Positions 15,347-60,267 of a DNA stretch of 64,000 nt are shown here, piece by piece. A program made the position numbers and the translations under genes. Within the stretch, counting starts at the first letter, position 1. Each line of letters opens with the position of its first letter. This DNA comes from an uncultured Gammaproteobacteria bacterium (GTDB lineage Bacteria > Patescibacteriota > Microgenomatia > UBA10105 > UBA927), in contig CAYGFH010000001.1 of NCBI GenBank assembly GCA_964349125.1, positions 5,408 through 69,407 of the forward strand, given 5' to 3'. The notes below the pieces were generated by a model, which worked only from the letters and a program-made list of their open reading frames with translations, made no database searches and was not told the origin of the DNA.

Positions 15347-15359
15347 AATTGCCTTTAGA

Positions 15360-16871: not shown

Positions 16872-16873
16872 AA

Positions 16874-17230
16874 TTATTGTTGTAATTGTGTTGCCATTTC
16901 TTCAAGTTGGCTCTTGAGGGATGTATCGACAATCCAATCCCCTACTTGTATTCGTAGCCCCGCGATGAGTGCACCGTTTACGGTGATCTCAAGTTCCACA
17001 TCATGTCCCATGATCTTTGATAAGACAGATGCGAGTGATTTTTTCTCTGTTTCCGAAAGTGCAACGGCTGTAGTCACACGTGCCATTTTCTCCTCACGTG
17101 TTTGTGCGGTAACTTTTCCCAAAAACGCGGCAACTTTTGGCACAGACGATTTGGATTTGCCGTCACGGCGCATATACTCTACGACGCCGTCTATCAGTCC
17201 TCGCGCATCTTTAGACAGTGATTGTTTCAT
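16874..17230 (-). CDS. atpH: F0F1 ATP synthase delta (OSCP) subunit, truncated form of 118 aa
   Basis: Operon position between atpF and atpA; OSCP C-terminal-like sequence; N-terminal domain apparently absent. Confidence 0.6.
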
Positions 17231-17231
17231 A

Positions 17232-17729: not shown

Positions 17730-17832
17730 ACAATTTTCCTTTCATTAATGATCTGGCAGAACAATGCCATTCTGCTCCCCCGCCGTAGCGGTGGGGAAGG
17801 AGAATATCACTGGACTCTTCACAAACAGTTCG

Positions 17833-18114
<282 letters not shown>

Positions 18115-18149
18115 CTATACATTGTATGTTTCTGACACTCTTGTTCGGA

Positions 18150-19079
18150 TCATCCGTGCGCCTCTTCCCCATGTGACACCGCAACATTCAGAAATACTGC
18201 AGTGAGCATAGAGAACACAAGCGCCTGGATAAATCCGACAAACAATTCCATAAGCAAAAACGGCAACGGGATAACAAATGGCATCAAAAATGCCAAAACT
18301 GCCAGAAGTACCTCTCCGGCGAAGATGTTTCCAAACAAACGGAAGGCAAAAGAGATAATCTTTGAGATTTCACTCATAAGCTCAAGAATACCGAGTACGA
18401 ACATAATCGGGTCACTGAAGTTGAAAAACTTCGTGCTGTAGTGGAATCCCAATATAGAAAATCCGAAATACTGGATGGCAAAGACAGCAAATATAGCCAG
18501 TCCGACCGTCATATTTAAGTCAGCAGTTGCGGCGCGAAGGAGAGGAACAAATTTTGGTCCTGAGTGCTCTGCAGACTCTTCTCCTGCAGCCGCTGCATGC
18601 TCTTCTGCCACAGCAGGAGCTTCCGGTTCTTCGTGTGTAGATTCAACAACAGGATTACCATGAGAATCTACAACCGGTACGTCATGTCCATCCGCCGGTC
18701 GCGTGGCTACATCAGCGGCTTTTTGCTCCGTGACAACTTCAGTCGTGTGCTCGGCCTCTTCAGTAAAACCGATTGTTCCGACCCCAGGCAAAAGTCCGAT
18801 CCAGTTGGCCATAATGACAAATAGGAAGATACTGGCAACTACAGGGAAAAACTTTTTGATGTGGTGACCAGTGACGGAACCGAAAAAATCATATAAACCG
18901 CCCACGAGCAGTTCAGCTATGGACTGGATGTTGCTTGGAACCTTTTTCATATTGCGGGTTGCAAAAAATGTAAAGATAAACAGGACGGCCATGGTCAGCC
19001 ATGTAGCCAGAAGAGAATTTGTGATAGGAAACCCGAAAAAATGCCCAATTACTTCAGCGGCCAAGGATATATGTAACAT
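18150..19079 (-). CDS. atpB: F0F1 ATP synthase subunit a, with about 70-aa acidic/His-rich insertion
   Basis: True start [21 protein letters not shown] at 19079; the ORF-track upstream extension overlaps atpI and is discarded. Conserved C-terminal helices with the [10 protein letters not shown] arginine motif. Confidence 0.85.
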
Positions 19080-19090
19080 AAAAAAAATAA

Positions 19091-19423
19091 TTACTGTTTT
19101 CGTTTTATCAGATCTCTTACGATTCTGATAAATCCGACTATTGATACAAGTACTCCAAACAAAAGCAAAGAGAGGGTCAGTTTCGGATATGTGGAGAATC
19201 GTTGATCCAGCCACATTCCTGCGAAAGCCCCTCCTGCGATTGGTGCTGCTATCGTGAAACCAAAATCGCCGGCGAATCCTACGTAATACCAGATACTGGA
19301 TCCTGCTGGCTTTTTCTCTTCCCGTTTACGGATAACAGTCTCTCCACCTTCTTCAAAGTGGAGGGTAAATTGATCAAATTCGTCTCGTGTATGATACCGT
19401 TTCTGATATTTTACCTGTTTCAT
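19091..19423 (-). CDS. AtpZ/AtpI-like small membrane protein encoded upstream of the ATP synthase operon
   Basis: Two predicted TM helices (YYVGFAGDFGFTIAAPIAGGAFAGMWLD); position immediately 5' of atpB; start placed at internal MKQVKYQ. Confidence 0.5.
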   Translation of the reverse strand: MKQVKYQKRYHTRDEFDQFTLHFEEGGETVIRKREEKKPAGSSIWYYVGFAGDFGFTIAAPIAGGAFAGMWLDQRFSTYPKLTLSLLLFGVLVSIVGFIRIVRDLIKRKQ

Positions 19424-19482
19424 TGTAGGAAACTGACAACACTTCGTCAATATGTATCCATGATGTATCAGTTGGCTCACAA

Positions 19483-22400
19483 TCAGGCTGTGATCCGCCG
19501 TACATCATCAGCAAGCAGTGTCATCCGTTCGTCTTTCTCGTCTATCTTACCACTTACGGATACTACTGTATCCAGCACCCAGTATTCCACTGTCTTTGCG
19601 TACGTCTTTGGGAATACCACTATTTCCACGGTACCGGTAATATCTTCCAACTTCACAAATGCCATTTCCTGATTACTGGCCTTCGTGGTGATCTTCTTCA
19701 CCGCCGTAATTATACCACCTATTGTCACACGCTCTCCTACCCGAGTGGGAAGTACCTCAGAGATATTGGTAAATGACATAGTGGCAAGCTTCGCTCTGTA
19801 GGGTTCAAGAGGATGCATAGTGAGATAAAATCCAAGCAATTCCTTTTCAAACAGGAGAAGCTCTGATTGTTGAAATTCCTGCACATCCGGGAGTACATCA
19901 ACCGCTCCGACAGATTCCTCTGTTCCAAATAATCCGACCTGTCCAGATGCCATTTCTTTTTTCAGTTTATGTGCGGAATCAATGAGCGTAGGGAGTAGGG
20001 ACAGAAGCGCCGCTTTGGAACCGAATGCACTCATACTTCCTGTTTTGATGAGACTTTCCAGTACCTTTTTGTTTACTTTTGATCCGTCTATCCGGTGTAC
20101 CAAATCCGTGAGACTTACAAATCTGCCGTCATTACGCGCCCTGATAATGCTTTCTATCGCGGCCTCCCCTACATTTTTTACTGCGGACAGGCCAAAGCGG
20201 ATTTTCCCACCCTCGATGCTGAACTCCACTTCTGACGCATTTATGTCAGGAGGCAGGAGTTCAATATTCGTCCGTCTGCACTCGGCGACGATTGTCGACA
20301 TTTTTTCATCACGTGCAGGACCTGTATTTGCACGTGACTCTGCGGCAAGTACAGCACACATGTACTCGACAGGATAGTTAGCCTTGAGGTAGGCAGTCTG
20401 GTACGCGATCATAGCGTAGCAGGCGGCATGTGCCTTGTTAAATCCGTACCCTGCAAACGGTTCTATTAGAGTAAATATCTCTTCCGCTTTTGTCTTTGTC
20501 ATCCCGTTTTTGATACAGCCTTCTGTGAATTTTTCTTTTTGCTTTTTCATTTCCGAGGCGATTTTTTTACCAACGGCTTTTCGCAGCTTATCCGCATCGC
20601 CCCATGAATATCCGGCAAGAGTGATGGCAGTCAGAAGCACGTCGTCCTGATACGCGATAATGCCGTAGGATTGTTTGAGCACATCCTTAAGCCGCGGATC
20701 CGGGTAGGTAATAAGGGACGGATCTTTTTTGCGCGCGATAAACTCGGGGATGACGAGCATAGGTCCGGGACGGTAGAGGGCAACCATAGCCATAAGATCA
20801 AAAATATTGGTGGGTCCCAGTTCCTTGATATACCGTCTCATGCCGGCTGACTCAAGCTGAAACACACCCGTGGTCTCGCCGATTGAGAGCATATCGTAGG
20901 TCTTTTTATCTTCGAGGGAAATGGTCGCGAGGTCAACGACCTCTCCTGTCACCTGTTTAATAAATTTGAGTGCCTGCGTCATGATCGTTAAGTTCCGCAG
21001 TCCCAAAAAGTCCATTTTCAAAAGCCCCACACCATCCTCACCGACCGTGTACATATCGTATTGGGTGACAATGCGGTCGCCTTTGCTTTCCCTCTGAAGC
21101 GGGGTGTACTCCACAATCGGTTTGTCAGCTATAACCACCCCCGCTGCATGTACAGAAGAGTGTCTGGCAACCCCTTCCAATTTTGTGGCCACATCCAGTA
21201 ACCGTTTCGTATCGGGTTCACTCTTGTAGGCAAGTGCGAGCTCTGATGATTGTTGCAGAGCCTTTTCTATCGTCATGGATGCACCCTGAAACCCAAGTGG
21301 AATCATTTTGGAAATACGGTCAGGCTGTGCGTATGGCATACCGAGCGCTCGCCCCGCGTCACGCACCGCACCCTTTGCCTCCATGGTGCCAAATGTGATG
21401 ATTTGTGCCACTTTATCTTCCCCATACTTCTGGGTCACATAGGCAATGACATCCTCACGCCTGTCATCGGCAAAATCCAGATCGATATCAGGAGGGGACG
21501 GACGGAACGGATTCAAAAACCGCTCAAACGGCAACCGAAAATATAGCGGGTCAATGCCCGTGATATTGAGTATGAATCCGATGATAGATCCGGCAGCACT
21601 GCCGCGGCCGGGGCCTACACCGATCCCGTTTTGCTTGGCCCAGTTAACGAAATCCTGCACGATTAGGAAGTACGTGGAGTAGCCTTTGGTATTTATGATA
21701 TCCAGTTCGTAGTCGATGCGCTCTTTCACTTCATCGGTAATTTCCTTGTATTTACCGGGAGCCCGTTCCATCACCATTTTGCGTAAATATGAAGCTGGTG
21801 TCTCCCCTTCCTCAAGCGGGTAGTTCGGGAGAATCCATTTACCCACGGACAGCGTGATGTCACACATGGAGGCTATTTTCACCGTGTTTTCAATTGCCTC
21901 GGGGTACTGGATAAAGAGATCCTTCATTTCGTCCGGAGAACGCATGTAGAAATCGGGTGACTCTAGCATAGAGAGCTTTCTATCTTTCTGGAGTATGGTG
22001 GTCTGGGTCTGGACACAGAGCAAAATCTCCTGTGCCTCGGCATCCCCTGCATCGACATAGTGGATGTCGTTGGTAGCCACCAAGGGTAATCCCAAACGGC
22101 GGGACAGCGCGACCAGTTTTTCGTTAACCTCTTCTATAATAGGTATACTTGCGTGTTTTTGGATTTCTATATAGTAGTGGTCAGGACCAAACAGTTCGCT
22201 ATATTCACGGGCTACTCGTTCTGCCTCCTTGTCTTCGCCTTTCCGGAGGAGACTCGCAACCTGTCCCTGTATACAGGCACTGGTACAGATAATCCCTTCG
22301 TGATATTTCTTGAGTAGCTCAAAATCGATACGGGGCTTATAATAGAATCCCTCCAAATGCGCGATAGTGACGAGCTTCATCAGATTTTTATAGCCGGTTT

Positions 22401-38063: not shown

Positions 38064-38116
38064 GCGGGATTAGTACACCGGTAGTAGCCCCGCCAACGGC
38101 GGGGAGAAGCGAGTTC
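38064..38116 (+). other. 5' portion (acceptor, D arm, anticodon arm, half of T arm) of a Gly-like tRNA paralogue, truncated in the T-loop by the GIY-YIG insertion
   Basis: gcgggattagtacaccggtagtag-ccccgccaacggcgggg-agaa-gcgag-ttcg, then the ORF ATG. The missing 3' part is found at 38436-38484. Confidence 0.55.
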
Positions 38117-38119
38117 GGT

Positions 38120-38374
38120 ATGTACTTTATGTATATATTGTCAAATGACCTATCTGGTAAGCACTATATAGGTTCGACAAATAACTTGGAACGCAGATTA
38201 GACGAACATAATCGAGGACAAACAAAATCAACAAAAAAAACTGGAAAATGGAGTATTATCTATACCGAACAATTTATGTCCGGTATAGATGCAAAGAGAA
38301 GAGAACAGCAGGTAAAATCATATAAAGGCGGTAATGCATTTAAGAAATTAATTGCGGGTATAGTACACTGGTAG
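38120..38374 (+). CDS. small standalone GIY-YIG (URI-domain) nuclease, 84 aa
   Basis: MYFMYILSNDLSGKHYIGSTNNLERRLDEHNRGQ...KREQQVKSYKGG matches the GIY-YIG catalytic core (YILxxxxGxxYIG, R, E). The last 21 nt overlap the 5' end of tRNA-Gly. Confidence 0.75.
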   Translation: MYFMYILSNDLSGKHYIGSTNNLERRLDEHNRGQTKSTKKTGKWSIIYTEQFMSGIDAKRREQQVKSYKGGNAFKKLIAGIVHW

Positions 38375-38424
38375 TATGCGACCTTCCCAAGGTTGAGAAG
38401 AGGGTTCGATTCCCTTTACCCGCT
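38354..38424 (+). tRNA. tRNA-Gly (anticodon CCC)
   Basis: Manual cloverleaf: acceptor gcgggta/tacccgc, anticodon loop ttCCCaa, T-loop ttcgatt, discriminator U; 71 nt. Confidence 0.8.
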
Positions 38425-38435
38425 CACGTAGTATG

Positions 38436-38484
38436 TCCCGCCAACGGCGGGAAGAAGCGAGTTCGATTCTCGTATCCCGCTCCA
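38436..38484 (+). other. 3' portion (anticodon arm to CCA) of the Gly-like tRNA paralogue; completes the fragment at 38064-38116
   Basis: tcccgccaacggcggga-agaa-gcgag-ttcgatt-ctcgt-atcccgc-t-CCA. The acceptor 3' strand pairs with gcgggat at 38064. There is a 30-bp direct repeat with 38088-38117. Confidence 0.55.
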
Positions 38485-38488
38485 AAAA

Positions 38489-38652: not shown

Positions 38653-38684
38653 GCGAGCAAGCTCATATTCTCGTATCCCGCTCA
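38653..38684 (+). other. relic third copy of the tRNA 3' end (gcgag...attctcgtatcccgctca) with a disrupted T-loop
   Basis: Shares aagcgag and attctcgtatcccgctc with 38457-38483, but ttcg is replaced by caagctcat. Confidence 0.4.
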
Positions 38685-38687
38685 AAC

Positions 38688-38718: not shown

Positions 38719-38806
38719 TTTGTATGGATATGCAGATGATGCACTCGTTGAGTTCGACAGTGACCTGCGAAGCTCGAAAGAGCGAAGTGGGATTTCTCTA
38801 TCCGCA

Positions 38807-39085
38807 TCACATCCGTTGTGACTTGGGCAGCACGCTTTCCAGTTGGGTCTGGTTTATTAATTCTTTCAGCAATGGGACCGTTTTGAGGTTAGCGATCATA
38901 TATGTGAGCACTGCCAATACTATAGATACGCCAATTGTCGTTCCGAGTCCAAATGAAATTCCCTGTAGGAAACTTTTCCCAATCAATTCACGGGGTGTGG
39001 GATATACACGGTCAACAGCGCGGATAAATTTATCCAGTTGCGACCACTTTTCTGGTTTTCGAGCTTTCATATTGTTAGTATACAA
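38807..39085 (-). CDS. hypothetical small membrane protein, 92 aa
   Basis: Single hydrophobic stretch FLQGISFGLGTTIGVSIVLAVLTYMI; AT-rich island. Confidence 0.4.
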   Translation of the reverse strand: MYTNNMKARKPEKWSQLDKFIRAVDRVYPTPRELIGKSFLQGISFGLGTTIGVSIVLAVLTYMIANLKTVPLLKELINQTQLESVLPKSQRM

Positions 39086-39109
39086 GATTTTTTCAACTAT
39101 TCCGATCTA

Positions 39110-39829
39110 CTATTTTAGAGACCCTCGCCTACCACCGTCATAGGCTGCCATATCTTCGGGTTTTGTAGATGTCGATTCTATAATCGAACGTTGTTCTGTG
39201 AAATACGCTTTGTTGTCATGATAAAACTGTTCATCACTCACATAGGGCACAGCCCCATCTTCATACCTGGCAAAGTGCTTTTGAAATAAACTGATAATCA
39301 GTTCCTCTCTCTGCGGAAGTATTTTTCCATTTGCTGGATTACTTAACGGATTGGGTTCATATGAATATCCTGGTCCAAAGAATTTACGAAGTATTACCTC
39401 GATACGAGGATAGTGTTGTGTATCAGAATTGTAAGTAAATCGCCTCCACTCCGGATGTTGCTCTCGTATGTAGTGGAGCATGGCACCTGCTTCGGATGCA
39501 GTATCGAAGCCTGCTTTCATAGGAACAACATTCTTAAAATCATCATGCCCTTCGCTCAGTAATATTGCATGAGTTTCTGACATAGATTCATCAGGATATA
39601 CAAGTCCTGTATGATAATTAACTTGTGCTCCACCTACTAATATCGGAGTATCGCTGTCTATCAATCCAGCGTCTCGCAAACTATAAATTTGCAAAATCCT
39701 TCCGATGCTTAGTGTGTTTGGTCTGTAATGCGTTTCCAGGGAATTGAGTGTTACCCCTCCCATAAAACATAATATCGCGTCAGAATCGAGTCTATCCATG
39801 CCTGTAATTATACTATTTTTGGGCGCCAT
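39110..39829 (-). CDS. DUF218 (YdcF/SanA/ElyC-like) domain protein
   Basis: AILCFMGGV, PILVGGAQ and DTASEAGAM resemble the DUF218 Rossmann-like motifs. Confidence 0.45.
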   Translation of the reverse strand: MAPKNSIITGMDRLDSDAILCFMGGVTLNSLETHYRPNTLSIGRILQIYSLRDAGLIDSDTPILVGGAQVNYHTGLVYPDESMSETHAILLSEGHDDFKNVVPMKAGFDTASEAGAMLHYIREQHPEWRRFTYNSDTQHYPRIEVILRKFFGPGYSYEPNPLSNPANGKILPQREELIISLFQKHFARYEDGAVPYVSDEQFYHDNKAYFTEQRSIIESTSTKPEDMAAYDGGRRGSLK

Positions 39830-39960
39830 CCCATAAATATTTTAAATTATGCATAAGGAGGTGGCGTTCGAAACTTACTATGTAGACCATCATAAATAGA
39901 TACTATTCATTTTTGTTATTAGGAAGCTTACTAGTATGGGGAGAATCTGACTAATAAAAA

Positions 39961-41643
39961 CTATTGATCTCTTGCTTCGAAAAGAAGGCCAACAGGTGAT
40001 CTCGAGAGCTTATTCTTCTCATCTAATAATTCTTTGCCTTTTTTCCACAAATCTTTACCAGATGTAACACCTATAATACCAGCAAGAGCAGAAGTAATAG
40101 ATATAGGCACGTTGCCAGTTGATGCTGCGGCGATCGATATTCCGCCAGCAACAAGCCACGGAGCTATATCGAATCCAAAATATTTTTTAACTCCGTTTGA
40201 ATGCTCCTTTAGTATTTTCATATGGTCAAAAAAAGCGTTATTAATGTTTCCAATAACCTCCCCTACTGTTTCTTGGTAAGTTTTTTCGTTGGCATCTTGA
40301 ATATTTACTATCCCTTTGCTGAATAGTTCCCTTAACTCGTTTAATGCACCTTCTTGTCTAAGTTTAATAAGTGCATCGTGCGGTACGTTCCCCAACCACT
40401 CCAATCTGTTACTTTGTAAAGCGTTTACGAGCATTATGTTTTTTAATTCAGGATTGACTTCCTCAGATTTTTCTCTATCGTACTCGTACTTCCATAGAAA
40501 ATATTTCCATGACGTAGGAGCATCAATAAAGGGTACACCATGTAATGAGTTTGCTTTGTAAAGCATTTCACCAATTTGCATCATTCGCCCTATCATTGAG
40601 AATTTTACTATTTCACCAACTGTGTAACCTTTTGGATAAGAAATACCCATTGATCCATCTTGTGATTTTTCCCATTGCTCAAGGAAAGGCAGTTTATCCC
40701 AATCCGTATCAAAAAGTATTCTTCCTGGTGCTTTGAGCTTTTTTTCAAGTTCTTCAGCAGTTTTTATACCCGAAACATATTTATTTAAATCATTAGTATT
40801 TTTAAAACTCATTCCGAATGCGTATTCCAAATGAGTTAATACATCTTGTTCGCCAACTGATGCGATAAATTTTGTAACACGTTCATCTAGGATAAATGGA
40901 TCAGGAGCAATAATTGCCAAAGGTGGATTTACATCAGCAAGCACCAAGTCTTTAAGACTTAAAGCAGATATTGCATGTTTTGCCAAGTAGTATGCTGCTT
41001 TTTCTGGCGTTACATACTTCATAAACGATGCCACTCGGAGCATCGGATCTGGCAATATTGTTGTATCAACATATAATCCTGCACTCGAAAGAGTGTTTTT
41101 TCTATAGCTCGGAAATATATCACCGCCATAAATTGTCTTTAATCCTTTTAGATCTTGGATATGAACACGTACAGCATCTCCAAATGTTTGCCAGAATTCG
41201 AGTATTCCATTTTTAAAATTTTCTGCATCCAAAGACAACGCTTTTACCAAAGATGGTTTTTCAGACATCTCCATTGCGATAACATGAGGGCTTACATTAT
41301 GCTTTAACATCTCTTGGTATGGATGTTCAAAGTACAATTCGAGGATATGGAAATACTCTTCTTGTATTTGCTTTAAGGGAATTTTTCTCAGATCCTCTTC
41401 GTATTTCATCCAAGAAACAGTTTTAGCAAGAGATCTGACCAAGGTATCTACAGTATTTGGATTCACCTTTCCATCTGATGAGTATCTAACTTTTTTTAGA
41501 GATTCAATAACTTCTTTGTCTTTTATAAACTGTAATTTACCTGTTTCTAGGTAGTCTTTTAGGAGCATCATCCGGGCATTCAATTCTTCTCTATCGTTTG
41601 TGCTTGCCATATATTCGATCGTCAAACGATCGTATACTGTCAT
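39961..41643 (-). CDS. hypothetical protein of about 560 aa with C-terminal double-TM hairpin; no recognisable domain (ORFan-like)
   Basis: Long AT-rich ORF; start placed at MTVYDRLTIEYMAS to avoid overlap with the divergent HXXEE gene; C-terminus GFDIAPWLVAGGISIAAASTGNVPISITSALAGIIGVTSG. Confidence 0.55.
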   Translation of the reverse strand: MTVYDRLTIEYMASTNDREELNARMMLLKDYLETGKLQFIKDKEVIESLKKVRYSSDGKVNPNTVDTLVRSLAKTVSWMKYEEDLRKIPLKQIQEEYFHILELYFEHPYQEMLKHNVSPHVIAMEMSEKPSLVKALSLDAENFKNGILEFWQTFGDAVRVHIQDLKGLKTIYGGDIFPSYRKNTLSSAGLYVDTTILPDPMLRVASFMKYVTPEKAAYYLAKHAISALSLKDLVLADVNPPLAIIAPDPFILDERVTKFIASVGEQDVLTHLEYAFGMSFKNTNDLNKYVSGIKTAEELEKKLKAPGRILFDTDWDKLPFLEQWEKSQDGSMGISYPKGYTVGEIVKFSMIGRMMQIGEMLYKANSLHGVPFIDAPTSWKYFLWKYEYDREKSEEVNPELKNIMLVNALQSNRLEWLGNVPHDALIKLRQEGALNELRELFSKGIVNIQDANEKTYQETVGEVIGNINNAFFDHMKILKEHSNGVKKYFGFDIAPWLVAGGISIAAASTGNVPISITSALAGIIGVTSGKDLWKKGKELLDEKNKLSRSPVGLLFEARDQ

Positions 41644-41727
41644 TTCAATCGGCTTGGTTATTATCTGGCTACTGGATATAACAATCTTTGTCCTCCCCAT
41701 TCTACACTTTTTTGCTATAGTTACAAT

Positions 41728-42075
41728 ATGACCCCACTTGAATCGTTTTTTGCCCTTAGCTTGCTGGTACAGATTAGCCATGCAATCGAAGAATTAAGTA
41801 CAGGCTTTCATAAGAAATGGTACTTGGTTACCATGCCGTTTTGGGTGTTTCTGGTATTTGAACTGCTGTTTGAAGGATTTTGGATCTGGGTGTATCTGTT
41901 TCAGGATTTTCCAAATCGTGCGGCTTTTCAATCATTCTTTCTGGCGCTGATGTTCGCAAACGGGGTACAACATCTCGTCTGGGCAGGGTCAGTGAAAAAG
42001 TATGTCCCGGGATTACTGACTGCTCCACTCCATATCATCGTATTTTTAGTATTTTATTTTACGGTACTTCTCTAA
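41728..42075 (+). CDS. HXXEE domain membrane protein
   Basis: SHAIEE motif (HXXEE) at the N-terminus and three hydrophobic helices. Confidence 0.6.
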   Translation: MTPLESFFALSLLVQISHAIEELSTGFHKKWYLVTMPFWVFLVFELLFEGFWIWVYLFQDFPNRAAFQSFFLALMFANGVQHLVWAGSVKKYVPGLLTAPLHIIVFLVFYFTVLL

Positions 42076-42135
42076 ACCAGTACCCCCCTCTTACGAACTG
42101 TACGAATGCGTACATAAAATTGGTATACTACTAGG

Positions 42136-43428
42136 ATGAAATCGTTCTACCATTTGCTGGGCAATACTGTGATATCTTCTATCACCAACTTTACCGTATT
42201 GTTTTCCATTATTTTTTATACATTTTTGCAAACCCGTTCGGTGTTCGCAACGGGCATGATATCGGGTATCAATCTCGTCCTGACTGCGCTGTCGGGTATC
42301 TGGTTTGGGAGTCTGGTCGATAACTACAAAAAGAAAACGGTCATGATGTATTCACATCTCGCTTCACTTGTACTGTATATCATCGCATTTGCCATGTATT
42401 TGACCATACCTATTTCCGTATTCTCCAATCCTCTAAGCCCTATGCTTTGGGCGTTTGTGATTATACTCATGGTCGCTATTATCATTGGTAATATCCGATC
42501 TATTGCCCTCCCCACCCTCGTCACGGTGCTAGTACCTGAGAATATTCGGGATAAGGCAAACGGACTCATCGGATCCACCATGGGTGTGTCGTTTATGATC
42601 ACATCAGTTATTAGCGGACTGTTGGTGGGACACTCTGGTATGTACTGGGTGCTCATCCTTGCGATTGGTGTTTCAATCGCTGCCAGCATCCACCTGTTTG
42701 GCACCACAATTATAGAAGAAAAGATTGTCCACCTGGCTGATGCACCCAAAAAAGTGGATCTGAAAGGGACGTATGTCGTGGTATCCAAAGTTCCGGGATT
42801 ATTGGCACTTATCCTTTTTACCACCATCAATAATTTCTTGGGCGGTGTATTTATGGCGCTCATGGATGCGTACGGATTGTCCCTCGTATCGGTGCAATTC
42901 TGGGGAACACTATGGGGATTTCTCAGTATTGCATTTATCATCGGTGGGCTCATTATCGCCAAATGGGGACTGGGGAAAAACCCACTTCGATCACTCTTTA
43001 TCGCAAACATTGTTATCTGGACCATCTCGGCCACATTCACAATCTATCCGTCTATCATTATTTTAGGTATAGGTATGTTTATATATCTGTGCGTCGTGCC
43101 GTTTATTGAAGCCTCGGAGCATACGATTATCCAAAAAGTAGTTCCACACAACCGCCAAGGGCGGGTATTTGGTTTCGCGCAGAGCGTGGAGCAGGCCGCG
43201 TCACCTATCACGGCATTTCTGATCGGACCGCTCACCCAATTTTTCTTTATCCCGTTTATGACAACGGGTAAGGGCGTTGACCTTATCGGGTCATGGTTTG
43301 GCACTGGTGCGGACCGTGGGATCGCTCTGGTGTTTACCCTCACTGGCATCATAGGCCTCATTATCACTGGTTTAGCCATGCGATCCCAAAGCTATAAAAA
43401 TCTCTCCACCTATTACCGAGAGGCATAA
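42136..43428 (+). CDS. MFS transporter (EntS/macrolide-efflux-like)
   Basis: 430 aa with 12 predicted TM helices and an MFS_1-like pattern. Confidence 0.8.
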   Translation: MKSFYHLLGNTVISSITNFTVLFSIIFYTFLQTRSVFATGMISGINLVLTALSGIWFGSLVDNYKKKTVMMYSHLASLVLYIIAFAMYLTIPISVFSNPLSPMLWAFVIILMVAIIIGNIRSIALPTLVTVLVPENIRDKANGLIGSTMGVSFMITSVISGLLVGHSGMYWVLILAIGVSIAASIHLFGTTIIEEKIVHLADAPKKVDLKGTYVVVSKVPGLLALILFTTINNFLGGVFMALMDAYGLSLVSVQFWGTLWGFLSIAFIIGGLIIAKWGLGKNPLRSLFIANIVIWTISATFTIYPSIIILGIGMFIYLCVVPFIEASEHTIIQKVVPHNRQGRVFGFAQSVEQAASPITAFLIGPLTQFFFIPFMTTGKGVDLIGSWFGTGADRGIALVFTLTGIIGLIITGLAMRSQSYKNLSTYYREA

Positions 43429-43537
43429 CGTCTCTTAACTTCATCATCCCCTCACACTGTCTATATGTCGCAGAGATACGCATGCATAGGCTTACGCGTA
43501 CCAGTATTTTCGTAGTTTAATTTGAGGATACTTTTCT

Positions 43538-45046
43538 TTATCCCAAACTCTTTCGCAGATGCGCCTGCGTTGTTAACTGGTCTTTACATGAGGCCATATC
43601 ATGGAGGTGACTCGCGATGTACTGCGATAGCTGCGCGTGTTCGAGCTGCTCCGGGGTCGTTGGACCTGCCTGTACGCCGAGGTATTCTTCTACACCCCGC
43701 ACGTCATCCAATACATCTTTCCAGGCCGCCGATTCGTTGGCAAGAAGCTCAAGAGCGTTCACGTTTACAAATCCCAATGCCGCTTTGAGATTGTCTTTGA
43801 TATTGAGATAGTACTGTTCAATATATGCAAGTGTTCCTTTTGTTTTGGCATCTTTCAATGCCCTGCCAGTTCCAATAATTTCGGGTGGTGCGCCCACACT
43901 GTAGAGTGATCCGGTAAATGTAATTGCCCGCGGTAGTCTCACCCCGCCGATTCCGCGAGAGTATCCGAACAGTCCGATATGCTGTACACGTTCCCGCCGT
44001 CTCGGTAAATGCGATGCCACTGTGTTTATAAGAGGAGCAATGCGCTCAATCGTCTGCTTATATGGAACTTCAATTACGTGGGCGATATCTGAGAGCATGG
44101 CAGCATCATCGGCTGATACGTGCTGAGCAACTCCGTACGGAAGCTCACTATCGAGTACTCTCAGTCCCGCAATGACGTCTTTGATGGGATAATCATAGCG
44201 AAATGCGCTCTGAATAAGTGCTGTCCGTATACCTGTATATTCTTTCGTAAATGCCATGGCATTCGTCGGCGTTAATCCCCCACGGAATGGCAACGCTGCT
44301 GTCCCGATTATCGGGTGAAGCGATATACCATGTCTTTTTTCAAATTGCTCATAACGGGAAAGTGCAATCTTTGTGGCAAGGACAGTGGGTATCAGACCGG
44401 AATTAAGCGCCGGATCACTGCGGGCTATGTAGGGACGTAGATACGTAGGCGTCGTGCCAAATGTTTTTTTATGCATCTCTATATATGTTTCCAATATTGA
44501 GTCGGAATTCAATATAGTATCGATATCCTCAAATAACGGAATAAGCTCTATGTGCTTGAGATTTTCCGGAATTTTATTAAACAGCGCATGTTTCAGGTTT
44601 GCCAATTCGCTGTACGCTTCCTGTATATCCATCATTTCCTGAGCGCTCGTGGTCATGGGGAGTATCACTTCAAACAGGGGCTGTTCATACAGTTCCAGCT
44701 GTTTGGCCAGACCCGATGCGCCAAAAATTCCCATAAATGCCCGTCCCAGGCGGAATTCCGTCTCCACTTTCGGATTAGGCAAACGGAATGTCAGAAATTT
44801 TTCTTTCCCGAGCGGGTGCGCCTTAAAATACTCAAAATGTTCACTGTATAATTTTTCTACAATAGATTCGTCGACGTATTTCCCCTCCCAGTCCCATTTA
44901 TATTCGGAAATACCCAGCTCATTAAACGCGATGAAACATTCTTTCACTTCATGCCGTGTGCTTATAAACTCGGTATCATGCCAAAAAGGAATAGAGGCGT
45001 GATCGGGGTGCTGTGACGCCATCGTGGTTGGTATAATGCGGTTCAT
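43538..45046 (-). CDS. ppcA: archaeal-type phosphoenolpyruvate carboxylase
   Basis: About 500 aa with N-terminal PTTMASQHPD motif and overall length typical of PpcA rather than the 900-aa bacterial Ppc. Confidence 0.55.
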   Translation of the reverse strand: MNRIIPTTMASQHPDHASIPFWHDTEFISTRHEVKECFIAFNELGISEYKWDWEGKYVDESIVEKLYSEHFEYFKAHPLGKEKFLTFRLPNPKVETEFRLGRAFMGIFGASGLAKQLELYEQPLFEVILPMTTSAQEMMDIQEAYSELANLKHALFNKIPENLKHIELIPLFEDIDTILNSDSILETYIEMHKKTFGTTPTYLRPYIARSDPALNSGLIPTVLATKIALSRYEQFEKRHGISLHPIIGTAALPFRGGLTPTNAMAFTKEYTGIRTALIQSAFRYDYPIKDVIAGLRVLDSELPYGVAQHVSADDAAMLSDIAHVIEVPYKQTIERIAPLINTVASHLPRRRERVQHIGLFGYSRGIGGVRLPRAITFTGSLYSVGAPPEIIGTGRALKDAKTKGTLAYIEQYYLNIKDNLKAALGFVNVNALELLANESAAWKDVLDDVRGVEEYLGVQAGPTTPEQLEHAQLSQYIASHLHDMASCKDQLTTQAHLRKSLG

Positions 45047-45185
45047 AGGGAAAGTATACTATAAAAAATGACAGTATATCGCCCGTGATTTCATCCCACG
45101 ACCGCATGCAAAATATAAAAGTGGGACATCAGAGTCAGGACTGACGATTCCGCTTATGTCCTATATTTGATAAAATAGGATATGC

Positions 45186-45256
45186 GCCTCCTTAGCTTAG
45201 TGGCAAAGCAGCGGTATCGTAAACCGTAGACGTCAGTCCGATTCTGACAGGAGGCT
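45186..45256 (+). tRNA. tRNA-Thr (anticodon CGT)
   Basis: Manual cloverleaf: acceptor gcctcct/aggaggc, D stem gctt/aagc, anticodon loop atCGTaa, T arm gtcag-tccgatt-ctgac. Confidence 0.8.
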
Positions 45257-45288
45257 CAGACTACACAGATATTTGGTATACTTCTAGT

Positions 45289-46005
45289 ATGATCACTACG
45301 CGAAGAGGGAGACTCGACGAACAAAAACAGCAAAAAAAACTGGTTCTCGCCATAGGTGGCATGATCGCCATCATCGTGTTTTTTGCCCTTTTTGGTGTAA
45401 AAATCCTCATCGGTTTCAGTGTGCTGGTTGATAATATAAGAGGCTCATCTCCTACACCGGTCGCACAATCAAACAAACAGGTACTGTTTCCTCCCTCACT
45501 TGATCCGCTTCCTGTAGCCACCCATAGCAGCATACTGCGCATCAGCGGATCAGGCACTGCCGGACTGACGGCAACTGTGTACGACAATAACAAAGAAGTG
45601 CGAAAAACTACCGTCGCGGGAAACGGCGTGTTTACCGCTCAGCTTCCGTCGCTCAAAGATGGTACACATGACCTGACGGTAAAACTGTCTGACACAAAAG
45701 GAAATATAAGCGAGCCGTCCAATCCTCTTACTATCATCATAAAGACAACGCTTCCGGAGCTCACAATAGATTCACCTGAAAATAACGCCACCATAAACAG
45801 TGAGAGCAATATGGTTTCCATATCAGGAACGACGGAGAGTGACACGACCGTATCGTTAAACGGCAGAATTGCGGTAATTAAACCGGATAATTCATTTACG
45901 TATTCATACCCGTTATCGGACGGGGAGAACATCATCCGCATTGTCGCGACAGACATGGCGGGAAATACCACCACAGAGGAATTGAAGCTTACCTATCAAA
46001 AGTAA
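45289..46005 (+). CDS. membrane-anchored protein with bacterial Ig-like repeats
   Basis: N-terminal TM helix, then beta-rich Thr/Ser-rich repeats (TATVYDNNKEVRKTTVAGNG..., TTVSLNGRIAVIKPDNSFTYSY). Confidence 0.5.
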   Translation: MITTRRGRLDEQKQQKKLVLAIGGMIAIIVFFALFGVKILIGFSVLVDNIRGSSPTPVAQSNKQVLFPPSLDPLPVATHSSILRISGSGTAGLTATVYDNNKEVRKTTVAGNGVFTAQLPSLKDGTHDLTVKLSDTKGNISEPSNPLTIIIKTTLPELTIDSPENNATINSESNMVSISGTTESDTTVSLNGRIAVIKPDNSFTYSYPLSDGENIIRIVATDMAGNTTTEELKLTYQK

Positions 46006-55416: not shown

Positions 55417-56685
55417 TCATAACAAATAGACCTTTTGTGCTTTAAACCTCGAAAACAATATATACATATATACGCTTGAAGTAATTAATTCGGTGAGGAT
55501 AGTAACATAACTTGCGCCTATGTATCCATATAAAGGGATAATAAATGCGTTTAACAATATTGTAAGCACTAGTGAAGATAATAATGGAATAATAAGATAA
55601 TTTGTCTTACCGAACGAAAGTATTATGTTGAAGAAAATATTGTTAATAAATAAAAATGGAACTGCATATAATAATATTTTAAAAGGTTCTATACTCGAAT
55701 AAAATTTGCTTCCACCGAGTATTCGCATTATTAATGGTGCGCTAGTGTTGCCTATCAGTATCATAAAACAAGATAATCCGATTGCTATTAATAAGGCATT
55801 TTTAACCAATCGTCGATACGAATTGTGGTCGGCATTACCGTGATATTTAGACAGAAGCGGAAAAATACTAGCCATAATAAGCCCCCATAGCATAATTATG
55901 TTATCTAATACTTTATAAGCTAGTGCGTAAATACCTACTTCCACTGGTGAACGGATCATAGATAACATCAAAGTATCAATCTTAAAATACAACATCGTTA
56001 ATATGGCAGTTAATCCTACAGGAAGACTTATCTTTAATATGTTGCTGGCTATTTTCTTATCGAAATGCAAGCTTAATACAATCCAATCTTGTACGAAGAA
56101 ATACTCAACGATCATCCCAGCTACATTACCTATCAAAACTGCATAAATTATTGAGTAGAAACCTAGATCATAGCGTATGAAGAAATATATGCAAACAACT
56201 GTTACGCTTTTTGTAAACAAATCCAGAAGTGATACAAGATCTAATCTGAGTCTTGATTGTAATATTGACGTTCCATATGAAGATAAATTGCTAATTGTTA
56301 ATGCGGCTATTCCGATAATTATTGCTATTTTCAGATCAGATTCGTATGGAGTGAATCCTAAGCCGATGAAAGCAGCAATAATAGAGATCACAATAAGTAG
56401 TATCTTTATATTAAAAAATGTAGCGTACGCATCGCGCGAGCGTTTTATATCCAATGACAACTCGCGAACTATAGTTTGGTTATAACCAACATCGGCTAGC
56501 GTCGTGAAAAATGAAACATATGTAAAAACTAGAGTAAACCAACCATATTTTTCAGCTCCTAAATATCGAGCCAGCAATGCTACGCTTATAATAGAAAGGC
56601 CAACGGCAAACACTTTTGATAAGATTTGCGTTATCGTATTTATTAATATTCGGCCGCTTACGGATGTTTTTGACATGTTTTCCAC
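55417..56685 (-). CDS. wzx: Wzx-type polysaccharide flippase (MOP/PST family)
   Basis: 422 aa with 12-14 TM helices and PST-family N-terminus; very AT-rich. Confidence 0.75.
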   Translation of the reverse strand: MENMSKTSVSGRILINTITQILSKVFAVGLSIISVALLARYLGAEKYGWFTLVFTYVSFFTTLADVGYNQTIVRELSLDIKRSRDAYATFFNIKILLIVISIIAAFIGLGFTPYESDLKIAIIIGIAALTISNLSSYGTSILQSRLRLDLVSLLDLFTKSVTVVCIYFFIRYDLGFYSIIYAVLIGNVAGMIVEYFFVQDWIVLSLHFDKKIASNILKISLPVGLTAILTMLYFKIDTLMLSMIRSPVEVGIYALAYKVLDNIIMLWGLIMASIFPLLSKYHGNADHNSYRRLVKNALLIAIGLSCFMILIGNTSAPLIMRILGGSKFYSSIEPFKILLYAVPFLFINNIFFNIILSFGKTNYLIIPLLSSLVLTILLNAFIIPLYGYIGASYVTILTELITSSVYMYILFSRFKAQKVYLL

Positions 56686-56735
56686 AGAATATCATGCGCG
56701 TATATATTTCACAATCAAAATGATATATTTCTATC

Positions 56736-57860
56736 ATGAAAATATTGGTCGTCAGAAACTCATATATTATAGCGGGCGCAGAGATATATTATTTGAAACT
56801 TCAACATTCCCTTCGGAAATTGAATATTGACTGTCAAATAATACTCCTAACTAATAACAATGACCTCGCTAAGATTGCTACATCTCACAATATCGAGTCC
56901 TATGTGTTGAACACGTTCAGCGAAGAAGTCGGCACAAAAAAAGGACTTTTACGACTTTTTTTTAATTTGCCGGATTACATATATAAATACATCTCTATTA
57001 TTCATAAATTGAAGAGATTGCACAAAATTGACTTAGTTCTATTGTCAGGTAAGACTGAAAAATATATCTTGACCCTATTAAAAGCTGTTATAGATTTACC
57101 GATATTTTGGATTGAGCATGGACAAGTATTTACACCAACCATGTCGAAAATCGCGCTTTTTCTATATAAATTTTCTAGCAATTATTGTACTTATATTCTT
57201 TCAGAATCTAATGACACAATGAACGATTTAATCGATAATGGAATTAATCCAAAGATAATAAAATATATAGGCTCAGGTATTGATCATGATTATTTCGTAA
57301 AGACTAAACATAATTTCTCAAAAAGATTAATTGTTGGTTTCATGGCAACGATATGTTGGGAAAAGGGCGTGGAAGAGCTTACTGATACTCTCAAACGAGT
57401 GATTCAGGTTGATAGCACAATTAAATTTCTCATATTAGGTGACGGACCACAATTGAGTTTTCTAAAAGAGTTTATTATTAAGAATAGATTATCCAGCCGT
57501 GTAATTGCATATGGAAGAACGGAAAATGTTAAAGCACAACTTAATCGAATGGATATCTTATTATCACCCATACATCACCCTGGAGGGTTATCGCTTTCAG
57601 TACAGGAAGCTATGGCAATGGGCTGTATCCCAATTGTTACCGATGTAGGCGGAAATCGTGAATTGGTTAATAGTAGTCATGGGTACATACATAAATCTGA
57701 TTTTTCGATTAACGCGTGCCTCAATATTATTGAATTGAAGGAGAACATTAACCTTCGAAAAAGACTCTCTCAAAATGCGAGAAAGTATGTTATTAAAAAC
57801 TATTCTGCAATACAATTTACAAAAAAATTATACAGTTTTCTTCGGAAACATATAGACTGA
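56736..57860 (+). CDS. family 4 glycosyltransferase
   Basis: EAMAMGCIPIVTDVGGNRELV (GT4). Confidence 0.75.
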   Translation: MKILVVRNSYIIAGAEIYYLKLQHSLRKLNIDCQIILLTNNNDLAKIATSHNIESYVLNTFSEEVGTKKGLLRLFFNLPDYIYKYISIIHKLKRLHKIDLVLLSGKTEKYILTLLKAVIDLPIFWIEHGQVFTPTMSKIALFLYKFSSNYCTYILSESNDTMNDLIDNGINPKIIKYIGSGIDHDYFVKTKHNFSKRLIVGFMATICWEKGVEELTDTLKRVIQVDSTIKFLILGDGPQLSFLKEFIIKNRLSSRVIAYGRTENVKAQLNRMDILLSPIHHPGGLSLSVQEAMAMGCIPIVTDVGGNRELVNSSHGYIHKSDFSINACLNIIELKENINLRKRLSQNARKYVIKNYSAIQFTKKLYSFLRKHID

Positions 57861-57912
57861 TACACATAACGATATCTTGACAAGTTTTTTCTCCTAAACA
57901 ATACTAAGCGCG

Positions 57913-60267
57913 ATGTTTATGAGAAACTTAGTTTCTTTATATAAATTTCTGCTTGTATTTCTTTTTATTCTTTCTCTTCCTGAATCGAAAATATTGGCGC
58001 AAAATACCTTTGCTAAATATCCTACTAATCCGGTTTTCACTAAATCAACTAGCTCTTGGGATACATCCGCAGCGCACTCACCAACAGTCGTATACGTTAA
58101 TGGATTGTATAAAATGTGGTACGAAGGTAACGGTGGAAGTGGATGGAGAATTGGATATGCATACTCCCATGATGGGATTACAAATTGGGTGCGACATCCA
58201 CAACCTGTCCTTCAGGTTGGATCATCTGATGGGTATGAATTAGATACCTTAAATCCTTATGTCTTATATAATTCCGATTTAAATCTATACCAAATGTGGT
58301 ACTCATCATATTCGATAAACTGGCCATCTGGTCCTGATCGATTCAGATTAAGATATGCAACATCAACCGATGGTATCAACTGGAATAGACATGACAGTTT
58401 TGTTTTAGCAGGATCACCGAATCCTAATGATTGGGATAGTGGCGGAATCGCGAGAGGCATTTCAGTAATTTACTCTAACAATCTCTATAGAATGTGGTAC
58501 ACCGGGACCGATTGGGGAACGAATTGGAAAATAGGATATGCTACATCACCTGATGGTATTAACTGGACGAAACAAAATAATGGTAGTCCTGTACTCACTC
58601 CTACATACCCTTATGAGCTAATTAAAGCTAACTTTCCCAATGTTGAATTTGATAATGGAATTTATAAAATGATATACGGTGCATCTCCCGGTGACCTTCC
58701 CACTCGATTTGTTTACGCAACTTCTGTTGACGGTATTTCGTGGACGAAATTGCCAAATGAAAACCCTATTTTATCTATCGGCAATATAGGGTCATTCGAT
58801 TCTATAGTAATTTCAGGCTCCAGCCTAGCACATATCAATAATAGTACTTCGTATTTATGGTATGGGGGCAACGCGGAATCGATTGGTTTAGCAATCAGGA
58901 CAGATATTTCTATCCCCACCCCAACTGCAACTCGATCCGCTACACCTACACACTCACCTTCCCCAACAATGACATCTACACCAACTCCAACACCTCCTAG
59001 TACTAAAAAAATCGTTATTATTCCTGGCATGGGAGGAAGTTGGAACCGCAACGCACTCCTTAATTGCTCGACGACATCAGTTGATTCAGAATGGTCGCAC
59101 GCAATAGACTATTATTCAAACTTACATGACAGGCTTGACGCGGATGGACTTGAAACTTTTTTCTTCGCATACGATTGGCGAAAACCAATACAGGAGAATG
59201 GATTAAAGTTGAAACAGTTTATTGATGCCCATACGGCGACCGGTGAAAAAGTTTTTGTAGTTGGCCATAGCATGGGTGGACTTGTCGCCCGATCATATTT
59301 GGTGCATGAGGAAAATCAAAATAAGATAGAGAAACTTCTCACTGTTGGCTCCCCACATAGTGGGGTGAATGTTGCGTATCCTGCTCTGGCAGGAGGAGAA
59401 CTCTGGACAGATGATCTGCTATCAAAGATTGCTTTCACACTTGTTCAATATACCTGTGTGGTCAATAAACGAATTATCAAGGTACAATCAGTCAGAACAA
59501 TGATTCCTTCGTTTTATGACTTGTTGCCCATATATGATTACTTAATTGATATACGAAATGGAGATCCAATACCGTATGCTACACAATTTTTCAAAAATAT
59601 ATGGATTCCACAGGCGCAATTTGAATTCCCTTTCTTTGGTGTTCATGTAGGTGCGTTATCCGGAATGGGCTCACAAACACATAAATCATATCTTACGATT
59701 CCGCCTTCCGGTATTAATCGCATACTAAATATTTGGACAGACGGATATCCTGTGAAAATTAATAAGGATATCTCTGGAGATGGAAAAGTATTGTTAACCA
59801 GCGCCTACCTTCCTGGTGCAGAGAACTGGTCAATAGAAGCTGATCACGGCGAGTTGGTTACAGAATCAATGGGCATTCAGAATATATCCGAATTTTTCAC
59901 ACAACAGCGATTTTCCGCACTGGGGCAAGTAGCGAAATCTTCACAGGATAAAAAGGAACCGCAACTCACACAGAAAACTGCCCTTGCTGTTATGAGTGAT
60001 TCAGGTTCATTCACGGTCAAAACTCCAAGCCACAACAGCTTGTCAGATGTAGATGGTTTCGTGTTGCTGGAAAACCCTGCTGATGGTAAATATGAGATAC
60101 AGGTAGTTCCTGTGAACGAAAAAACCACTATCTACGTAGGACAGATTGTCGAAGGGGGTAAAACAATATGGAAAGATTATGAGCTAAAGAAAAAGAATCG
60201 GATCACCTTGCCAGTCCATTTTGATCATGCACATCCACACGATGATCCATTTAAAGACAGAGACTAG
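57913..60267 (+). CDS. secreted multidomain protein: signal peptide, GH32/43/130-like beta-propeller repeats, Pro/Thr linker, LCAT/PGAP1-like alpha/beta-hydrolase (GHSMGG, YDWR) and C-terminal beta domain
   Basis: Five blade-like repeats ending in MWYxG...IGYATSxDGIxW; PT-rich stretch PTPTATRSATPTHSPSPTMTSTPTPTPPS; lipase pentapeptide VVGHSMGGLV and FFFAYDWRKP. Confidence 0.7.
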   Translation: MFMRNLVSLYKFLLVFLFILSLPESKILAQNTFAKYPTNPVFTKSTSSWDTSAAHSPTVVYVNGLYKMWYEGNGGSGWRIGYAYSHDGITNWVRHPQPVLQVGSSDGYELDTLNPYVLYNSDLNLYQMWYSSYSINWPSGPDRFRLRYATSTDGINWNRHDSFVLAGSPNPNDWDSGGIARGISVIYSNNLYRMWYTGTDWGTNWKIGYATSPDGINWTKQNNGSPVLTPTYPYELIKANFPNVEFDNGIYKMIYGASPGDLPTRFVYATSVDGISWTKLPNENPILSIGNIGSFDSIVISGSSLAHINNSTSYLWYGGNAESIGLAIRTDISIPTPTATRSATPTHSPSPTMTSTPTPTPPSTKKIVIIPGMGGSWNRNALLNCSTTSVDSEWSHAIDYYSNLHDRLDADGLETFFFAYDWRKPIQENGLKLKQFIDAHTATGEKVFVVGHSMGGLVARSYLVHEENQNKIEKLLTVGSPHSGVNVAYPALAGGELWTDDLLSKIAFTLVQYTCVVNKRIIKVQSVRTMIPSFYDLLPIYDYLIDIRNGDPIPYATQFFKNIWIPQAQFEFPFFGVHVGALSGMGSQTHKSYLTIPPSGINRILNIWTDGYPVKINKDISGDGKVLLTSAYLPGAENWSIEADHGELVTESMGIQNISEFFTQQRFSALGQVAKSSQDKKEPQLTQKTALAVMSDSGSFTVKTPSHNSLSDVDGFVLLENPADGKYEIQVVPVNEKTTIYVGQIVEGGKTIWKDYELKKKNRITLPVHFDHAHPHDDPFKDRD

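Follow-up and report, generated by a model that had tools for sequence, protein, structure and literature searches.

What has been acquired at the AT-rich interval between two transfer RNA (tRNA) genes of a Microgenomates-group bacterium of the Candidate Phyla Radiation (CPR), and what might the large protein encoded there do? The DNA analysed is a 64,000-nucleotide (nt) stretch of contig CAYGFH010000001.1 (assembly GCA_964349125.1, positions 5,408 to 69,407), termed here the window. The genome sits on a contig of about 0.81–0.84 Mb, and among named bacteria its ClpB is closest to those of Candidatus Gottesmanbacteria (70%) and Candidatus Roizmanbacteria (66%). Its positions 38724–45185 had been described in a first-pass annotation, made from the sequence letters, as a horizontally acquired island centred on an open reading frame of 560 amino acids (aa). 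The comparisons below reduce the foreign unit to this one gene and its immediate surroundings. The reading proposed, held at about even confidence, is that the 560-aa gene forms a single-gene cassette, which is self-contained, moves horizontally and would encode a stand-alone anti-phage defence protein.

The open reading frame at 39961–41643 is a real gene. It is in the list of open reading frames of the window and stays open up to position 41781; the start at 41643 is backed by a 560-aa homologue of 98% identity and by the starts in the family alignment. Its guanine-plus-cytosine (GC) content is 0.364, and 0.292 at third codon positions (GC3), about 2.2 standard deviations under the mean of the window genes (GC 0.452, standard deviation 0.040; GC3 0.453, standard deviation 0.068; the z-score was taken on a 606-aa version of the open reading frame). 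One-kb windows at 39–42 kb have a GC of 0.394, 0.364 and 0.380 vs. about 0.45–0.50 elsewhere in the window, and just 6.4% of 2.9-kb windows equal the AT-richness of 38801–41700. Low GC had been attributed to all genes in 38807–41643. This is true of the 560-aa gene and, more weakly, of the adjoining 239-aa gene (GC3 0.329), but the DUF5665 gene is normal (GC3 0.443). Because the DUF5665 gene and the genes for the HXXEE membrane protein, the major facilitator superfamily (MFS) transporter and phosphoenolpyruvate (PEP) carboxylase are all compositionally normal, the anomaly is one of about 2–2.6 kb and not of 38724–45185.

A sister strain (L095) has the same gene order. The 560-aa gene is shared between the two with 97.3% nt identity, a synonymous divergence (dS) of 0.098 and a ratio of nonsynonymous to synonymous divergence (dN/dS) of 0.10. 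The near-identical tract extends from about 39750 to 41721, with a sliding identity to L095 of 93%–100% inside (one 60-column block has 0.90) and 77%–90% outside; this 97%-identical tract of about 2 kb stands against a background of 81%–87% identity between the sister strains. Upstream of the gene, positions 41662–41721 are 100% identical. The tract and the GC trough coincide in a fine GC profile. The foreign unit is a single-gene cassette of about 2 kb (~39750–41721), not the 6.5-kb interval. Since dS is 0.098 in the gene vs. 0.6–1.6 in its flanks, and dN/dS is 0.10, the cassette was swapped between lineages long after these had diverged, with the gene kept under purifying selection.

The locus in a further relative (L001) has the same frame, composed of tRNA-Thr(cgt), a homologue of the 239-aa protein (75% identical), tRNA-Gly(ccc), tRNA-Asp(gtc) and LemA. 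The 560-aa, HXXEE, MFS and PEP carboxylase genes are all missing from it, and the locus holds an aldo-keto reductase gene and a serine-recombinase element instead. The interval is therefore a variable hotspot, in which the 239-aa gene is a conserved resident. By its deviant composition, its absence in L001 and its discordant dS, the 560-aa gene qualifies as horizontally acquired. Thus the proposal of an acquired island holds for one mobile gene in a tRNA-framed variable interval, but not for a multi-gene extent of 6.5 kb. The L001 element (L001 positions 11700–20320, about 8.5 kb) is located between tRNA-Gly and tRNA-Asp and carries genes for a large serine recombinase, a 717-aa Sigma70_r4 protein, a 550-aa HATPase_c protein and a helix-turn-helix regulator; it may be an integrative element with defence-like cargo of its own.

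The tRNA-derived repeats and the tRNA-Thr gene that had been named as landmarks exist, but the repeats do not bound an island. An island bounded by attachment (att) sites was rejected because the tRNA-fragment repeat does not recur past 38686, at the other end of the genes, and no integrase or recombinase is found among the island genes in a Pfam search. The cassette resembles tRNA-associated genomic islands in its deviant composition and in its setting, as tRNA-Thr, tRNA-Gly and tRNA-Asp frame an interval with contents that vary between relatives. It differs from them in having neither an integrase nor direct repeats bracketing the genes, and in that the exchanged unit is a single gene of 2 kb. 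The borders of the cassette fit homologous recombination better than site-specific integration.

The 560-aa open reading frame had been called an ORFan; this label does not stand. A word-indexed search brings up 120 homologues, about 550 aa long and each without a name or a Pfam domain; a profile search of 1.84 billion cluster representatives yields 447 clusters with E ≤ 1e-30, rising to 1,171 with E ≤ 1e-3. The family is present in at least 114 of 185,579 species genomes (about 0.06%) and at least 12 phyla, 114 being a lower bound as the species-genome scan was pattern-limited. It is also found on 6 of 72,556 plasmids and on 9 IMG/VR viral contigs. CPR-like contigs carry homologues with 76%–79% identity, two of them near a tRNA-Gly gene; the outer flanks differ in two of the contigs (L085 and L088). 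All residues that are invariant in the family are present in the 560-aa protein. The N-terminus of the family is modular: the first ~70 residues are missing in forms of about 480 aa, and some 200 residues are added in forms of about 740 aa; no Pfam domain is detected in the longer variants either. An apparent fusion with an AIRS domain (L022) was rejected as a read-through artefact of the open reading frame.

All open reading frames within 5 kb of the family gene were clustered across 80 genomic loci, and no conserved neighbour was found. The large clusters consist only of antisense shadow open reading frames, generic paralogues (ABC ATPases, short-chain dehydrogenases/reductases) and mobility genes, and 150 immediate neighbours fall into 133 different Pfam families. 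Integrases, resolvases and an IS3 transposase occur within 5 kb at about 14 loci. At 90% of 72 loci the AT content of the family gene exceeds that of its flanks (mean difference 7.4 points, p = 6e-12). These comparisons show a gene family that is rare, phylogenetically scattered, solitary and moving between lineages.

Among the homologues, one in E. coli shows 32% identity to the 560-aa protein (BLASTP, E = 3e-92, residues 19–555) and has the same hairpin and tail at its C-terminus. Of 5,426 complete E. coli genomes, 17 carry this homologue. The three records that were inspected show it within a P2-like prophage, with replication endonuclease gpA/DinI-like genes on one side and gpQ, the portal gene, on the other. 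This cos-proximal gpA–gpQ interval, occupied by old and tin in P2, is a hypervariable store of anti-phage systems (Rousset et al. 2022, PMC9122126), and the E. coli homologue is entry 79 in Table S5 of that work, listed there as a single protein without a domain, with 49 occurrences and the remark “2 TM”. Entry 79 (e.g. WP_148119620, WP_032248695) and the 560-aa protein belong to the same family and share their architecture end to end, i.e. the N-terminal segment, the core motifs, the hairpin and an RSxxGILF tail. Entry 79 is likewise a solitary gene in a hypervariable mobile hotspot and is AT-rich relative to its host (0.353 vs. 0.526). The difference is in the carrier, a P2 prophage vs. a chromosomal, tRNA-framed variable interval in a CPR bacterium. 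Three divergent P2-like IMG/VR contigs, with portal proteins 50%–56% identical to that of the E. coli prophage, have a family member at a distance of 66–125 nt to the portal gene. A partial match is seen in a fourth contig.

The family is thus already catalogued, unnamed, in E. coli P2 prophages. New are its sparse but wide distribution, its recent exchange between CPR strains, and the architecture described below. In some E. coli P2 hotspots, such as that of the strain 1283 prophage (L093 positions 5523–6683), the family gene is joined by a gene for a 386-aa hypothetical protein, WP_032248694. This protein, which has no PADLOC match, is also present in other hotspot arrangements of Table S5 from which the family gene is missing.

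The 560-aa protein had been said to show no recognisable motif, and Pfam, NCBIfam and PHROGs indeed give no match above threshold. PADLOC models show two remote similarities. The central region is similar to DitB (PDLC03827; E = 4.1e-11, 40 bits), a weak and partial match that covers profile positions 91–298 of 361 (208 positions) and is given by 26 of 49 family members; the E. coli homologue matches the same model at 5.3e-10. The N-terminal region is similar to Avs1c (E = 2.6e-5), as in 29 of the 49 members, the best at 3.6e-9. The corresponding NCBIfam model NF041811 scores 29.9 bits vs. a cut-off of 70.

DitB is one of the two proteins of Aditi, a system with no recognisable domain (Millman et al. 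2022), which was still unclassified in a 2024 survey. The similarity to DitB is remote, family-wide and confined to the core, and both proteins are without a known domain. However, the 560-aa protein is about 200 aa longer, has an Avs1c-like N-terminus and a C-terminal hairpin, is not accompanied by DitA, and scores far under the expectation for a true member. No DitA match is found among the island proteins or within the family proteins, and no neighbour is conserved in the 80 loci. With respect to Avs1c (NF041811; PADLOC PDLC02160), the first ~70 residues span almost the whole profile (positions 1–60 of 63 and 3–73 of 86) in the 29 members. Avs1c is a free protein of about 63–86 aa in AVAST type 1, whereas here the segment is fused to a large protein and is missing in some variants. 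No STAND NTPase (Avs1a/b) is found in the flanking genes using Pfam, PADLOC and NCBIfam. With no DitA, no STAND partner and sub-threshold scores, the 560-aa protein would be assigned to neither Aditi nor AVAST type 1. The PADLOC check of the island suggested earlier thus yields remote matches of the one protein, but no complete system. A homologue on a Sutcliffiella plasmid was considered as a bridge to true DitB and rejected, as it has no DitB match and its neighbour is a SEC-C protein. A literature search found no mechanistic studies of Aditi or Avs1c.

The AlphaFold2 model of the 560-aa protein, from an alignment of 49 sequences, is confident (predicted local distance difference test, pLDDT, 81.7; predicted template modelling score, pTM, 0.79). 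It displays a helical N-terminal region (1–164), an alpha/beta core, a 40-residue helix, the hairpin (490–528) and a Lys-rich amphipathic C-terminus. Core beta-strands are modelled at 169–173, 194–198, 243–246 and 370–373. Invariant or near-invariant residues, which include G173-G174, F177-P178, D193-T194, D199-P200, P241, H271, D312, R353, P371, T377-S378-W379 and E387, sit in or beside these four strands. The position of the invariant polar residues near strand ends suggests a putative ligand-binding or catalytic site. Foldseek comparison with PDB and BFVD gives no fold match below E = 0.3, and the family profile has no match below E = 0.7 among PDB sequences. The structure prediction that had been proposed as a check brings up no known fold in these databases.

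The two C-terminal transmembrane (TM) helices of the first-pass annotation are only partly confirmed. A hydrophobic hairpin is conserved family-wide, but it is rich in Gly, Ala, Ser and Thr, and its maximum over 19 residues on the Kyte-Doolittle scale is 1.48 (1.2–2.05 in the family), compared with the usual TM threshold of about 1.6. According to Table S5 of Rousset et al. 2022 (PMC9122126), Phobius assigns two TM segments to the homologue from E. coli. Two TM helices in the 560-aa protein are plausible but not secure from sequence alone.

The defence reading, which the first-pass annotation had proposed in the wider form of a defence or conflict gene and which remains plausible, follows from the family-wide similarity to DitB and Avs1c together with the homologues in the P2 gpA–gpQ defence hotspot. 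In the mechanism proposed, the N-terminal helical module, variable across the family, would be a candidate sensing or regulatory part, the conserved alpha/beta core would contain the predicted ligand-binding or catalytic site, and the C-terminal hairpin would hold the protein at the inner membrane. Both termini may be cytoplasmic (N-in/C-in), judging by eye from the Lys-rich flanks on either side of the hairpin. Once infection is sensed, the hairpin could compromise the membrane (abortive infection), or the core could act enzymatically or by exclusion at the membrane. Membrane association, topology and mode of action are all inferred here. TM effectors have been proposed in general to trigger cell suicide (PMC9122126). 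Like abortive-infection TM effectors, the 560-aa protein combines a short, conserved pair of hydrophobic helices with defence association and a hotspot location. It differs in that such effectors are normally switched on by a separate signal-producing partner, whereas the 560-aa protein stands alone; its short hydrophobic segments are rich in Gly, Ala and Ser, and the protein has no sequence or fold relationship to these effectors. Membrane permeabilisation specifically by the hairpin is, on balance, rather unlikely.

The contexts of other family members include defence genes. The Photobacterium plasmid copy is about 3 kb from a gene of the validated defence family DUF4238 and adjoins an IS256 transposase. 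CPR-like relatives have a zeta toxin (L088) or a PDC-S07-like NUDIX protein nearby, and immediate neighbours elsewhere match the PADLOC models PDC-S06, PDC-S15, AriA, mREase IV, RmrA and CBASS cyclase.

Several observations weigh against a defence function. These neighbours are raw occurrences, not set against the genomic background, and in other genomes housekeeping genes make up many of the neighbours. The DitB and Avs1c matches are weak (40 and 22 bits), and the homology yields no biochemistry because DitB and Avs1c are themselves without a known mechanism. The hairpin is marginally hydrophobic and is the sole low-confidence part of the model (pLDDT < 50). The sequence of the E. coli homologue is absent from the tables of experimentally assayed systems in Rousset et al., a literature search found no paper naming the homologue accessions, and only 3 of the 8 additional P2 systems assayed showed activity (PMC9122126). 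PADLOC finds no other recognisable defence gene beside the cassette in the window. We know of no phage of the CPR host.

A fuller version, more doubtful than the defence reading itself, is that of a new stand-alone immune protein with an unseen alpha/beta fold. Its single chain would unite a variable N-terminal sensor, a core resembling DitB and a hairpin that inserts into the membrane, and it would work in ultra-small CPR bacteria as well as in the P2 prophages of E. coli. Few defence systems are known in ultra-small CPR bacteria. If correct, a widespread but rare single-gene defence family would be added, the orphan components DitB and Avs1c would be joined in one architecture, which offers a route to their mechanisms, and strains of a CPR bacterium with a reduced genome would be shown to exchange a defence gene actively. 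The E. coli homologue, in the P2 hotspot with its own upstream region, makes the prediction testable by plaque assay without culturing the CPR host.

The alternative that survives best, though unlikely, is that the gene is non-defensive cargo of mobile elements: an addiction or toxin-like gene, a factor of anti-defence or competition between elements, or a host-fitness “moron”. Solitary, AT-rich, patchy and hotspot-located genes also fit this, 5 of the 8 additional P2-hotspot systems assayed gave no defence (PMC9122126), and toxin genes are close by at some loci (the zeta toxin in L088, YoeB in two loci). However, no cognate small partner is found in the cassette or conserved beside the family gene, which argues against a classical toxin-antitoxin pair. 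The family-wide similarity to components of two bona fide defence systems also argues against mere cargo, as does the maintenance of the gene under purifying selection in a reduced CPR genome of about 0.8 Mb.

Quite unlikely is a second alternative, in which the protein is defensive but the alpha/beta core is itself the effector or sensor, either acting on a nucleotide or small ligand or blocking entry of phage DNA (superinfection exclusion); the hairpin would be an anchor only, and the cell would survive. The invariant polar residues of the strand region (D193, T194, D199, H271, D312, R353, T377, S378, E387) are placed in the model as those of an active or binding site would be, and the hairpin is hydrophobic only to a marginal degree. 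Prophage-encoded membrane proteins often work by exclusion. Against this, the fold and profile searches given above bring up no enzyme fold or motif, and the hairpin and RSPVGxLF tail are conserved as strongly as the core, beyond what anchoring needs.

The first-pass annotation had favoured a single system of the 560-aa gene with its neighbours, i.e. a three-gene accessory island (the 92-aa membrane protein, a “DUF218-like” protein and the 560-aa protein) acquired jointly at the tRNA hotspot. The three genes are adjacent and co-oriented, all three are present in L095, and the 239-aa gene also has a low GC3. Nevertheless this is very improbable. The co-occurrence check that had been suggested finds neither the 239-aa nor the DUF5665 gene with the family in more than 80 other loci, and L001 keeps the 239-aa gene but has no 560-aa gene. 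The dS values of the 239-aa gene (0.62) and the DUF5665 gene (1.0) vs. 0.098 for the 560-aa gene point to separate histories, and the normal composition of DUF5665, the lack of a DUF218 signal and the lack of att repeats or an integrase also speak against it. A housekeeping or lineage-core role of the 560-aa protein in Microgenomates, as a membrane-associated protein with an incidentally low GC, could be suggested by its CPR-like homologues, two of them near tRNA-Gly, but is hardly credible in view of the absence of the gene from the syntenic site in L001, the differing outer flanks in L085 and L088, the occurrence in about 0.06% of species genomes in unrelated phyla and on plasmids and prophages, and the signature of recent transfer between strains.

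The neighbouring genes were also considered individually. The 239-aa protein shows no Pfam match at E ≤ 0.1 or even at E ≤ 1, so that the DUF218 assignment falls away; NCBIfam, PADLOC, PHROGs and PDB sequences give no match either. Its homologues among 5.8 billion proteins are two only, one identical copy and one relative with 75% identity, and its AlphaFold2 model, from an alignment of just two sequences, has a pLDDT of 38 and is unusable for fold assignment. The gene stays between tRNA-Thr and tRNA-Gly in both genomes, and its dN/dS of 0.08 indicates purifying selection. It is a conserved resident of the locus and not a partner of the 560-aa gene. The HXXEE gene was rejected as a partner, since its dS of 0.73 puts it outside the exchanged tract and it is adjacent to the family gene in 0 of 80 genome loci. 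An HXXEE gene (71% identical) divergently adjoins the family gene in L085–L087 (7521–9653), a CPR-like lineage with differing outer flanks. We read the position of HXXEE beside the family gene as a probable lineage-specific adjacency.

The features of the interval and of the 560-aa gene are collected in Table 1.

Table 1. Features of the interval between tRNA-Gly and tRNA-Thr, with positions in the window and dS relative to the sister strain L095
Feature	Position	Strand	dS vs. L095	Basis and remarks
tRNA-derived repeats	38089-38117, 38437-38485, 38667-38686			Repeat analysis
tRNA-Gly(ccc)	38354..38425	+		ARAGORN and Rfam; edge of variable interval; kept in relatives; same tRNA frame in L001 and L088
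DUF5665 protein gene, 92/87 aa	38807-39085	-	1.0	
239-aa protein gene	39110-39829	-	0.62	dS about 6-fold above 560-aa gene
Cassette of ~2 kb	39750..41721			560-aa gene, 78-nt upstream region, 131-nt downstream spacer, first ~80 nt of 239-aa gene
560-aa protein gene, candidate stand-alone defence protein	39961..41643	-	0.098	Open reading frame list and homologues
C-terminal hydrophobic hairpin, residues ~490-528	40060..40176	-		Hydropathy and family alignment; followed by Lys-rich helix and conserved RSPVGxLF tail
Central alpha/beta core, residues 196-410, DitB-like	40414..41058	-		PADLOC; bears most invariant polar residues
N-terminal helical segment, residues 9-80, Avs1c-like	41404..41619	-		PADLOC and NCBIfam; missing in ~480-aa variants
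Upstream region with promoter-like site TTGTAA-16-TAGAAT (41726-41699)	41644..41726	-		Consensus scan; region common to divergent HXXEE gene start at 41728
HXXEE membrane protein gene, 115 aa	41728-42075	+	0.73	Divergent from 560-aa gene
MFS transporter gene	between HXXEE and PEP carboxylase genes		0.79	
Archaeal-type PEP carboxylase gene	43538-45046	-	1.6	TIGR02751, E 3e-144
tRNA-Thr(cgt)	45186-45257	+		ARAGORN and Rfam; opposite edge of variable interval; kept in relative L001

The promoter-like site in Table 1 is weakly supported, as the number of sites found in the consensus scan is no higher than in shuffled sequences. The spacer 3′ of the 560-aa gene shows no more structure than shuffles and no credible small open reading frame. 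The PEP carboxylase is of archaeal type in a CPR bacterium; its gene has a native composition, is missing from the L001 locus and has diverged from that of the sister strain with the highest dS in Table 1 (1.6). A 139-aa plus-strand open reading frame at 38724–39143, the source of the start coordinate 38724, is antisense to the DUF5665 gene and has a codon fit z-score of −2.3, the second-worst in the window; it is probably not a gene.

Beside the interval, the T-loop of a tRNA-Val(AAC) gene is interrupted by an insert: positions 38064–38117 joined to 38466–38485 give a complete tRNA (ARAGORN). The 348-bp insert contains a GIY-YIG homing-endonuclease-like open reading frame (38120–38374, GC 0.337), the intact tRNA-Gly(ccc) gene and a 29-nt target duplication; no group I intron was detected. 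A third copy of the tRNA-Val 3′ end is found 200 bp further on (38667–38686), and a terminator-like hairpin follows each 3′ copy. In L001 and L088 the tRNA-Gly gene is present, and the tRNA-Val and GIY-YIG genes are both missing.

The lack of Shine-Dalgarno (SD) sequences had been taken as a mark of the island genes. An SD-like tetramer is present in only 14 of the 58 window genes, and this lack is therefore no mark of an island. Many window genes begin 5–10 nt past a TGnTATACT/TATAAT-like box, without an SD motif, which suggests that leaderless or very-short-leader mRNAs may be widespread in this CPR genome. A 28-nt repeat, TTGGTATACTnCTAGnATGA, is present upstream of two genes (42112–42139, 45265–45292).

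According to per-kb and per-gene profiles, the sole other comparably AT-rich stretch of the window is a patch at 55417–60267 (GC 0.33–0.40), which adjoins tRNA-Val(gac). Its genes encode a Wzx-like polysaccharide flippase, a GT1 glycosyltransferase and a 784-aa GH130/alpha-beta-hydrolase protein, and it is probably a horizontally variable surface-polysaccharide cluster.

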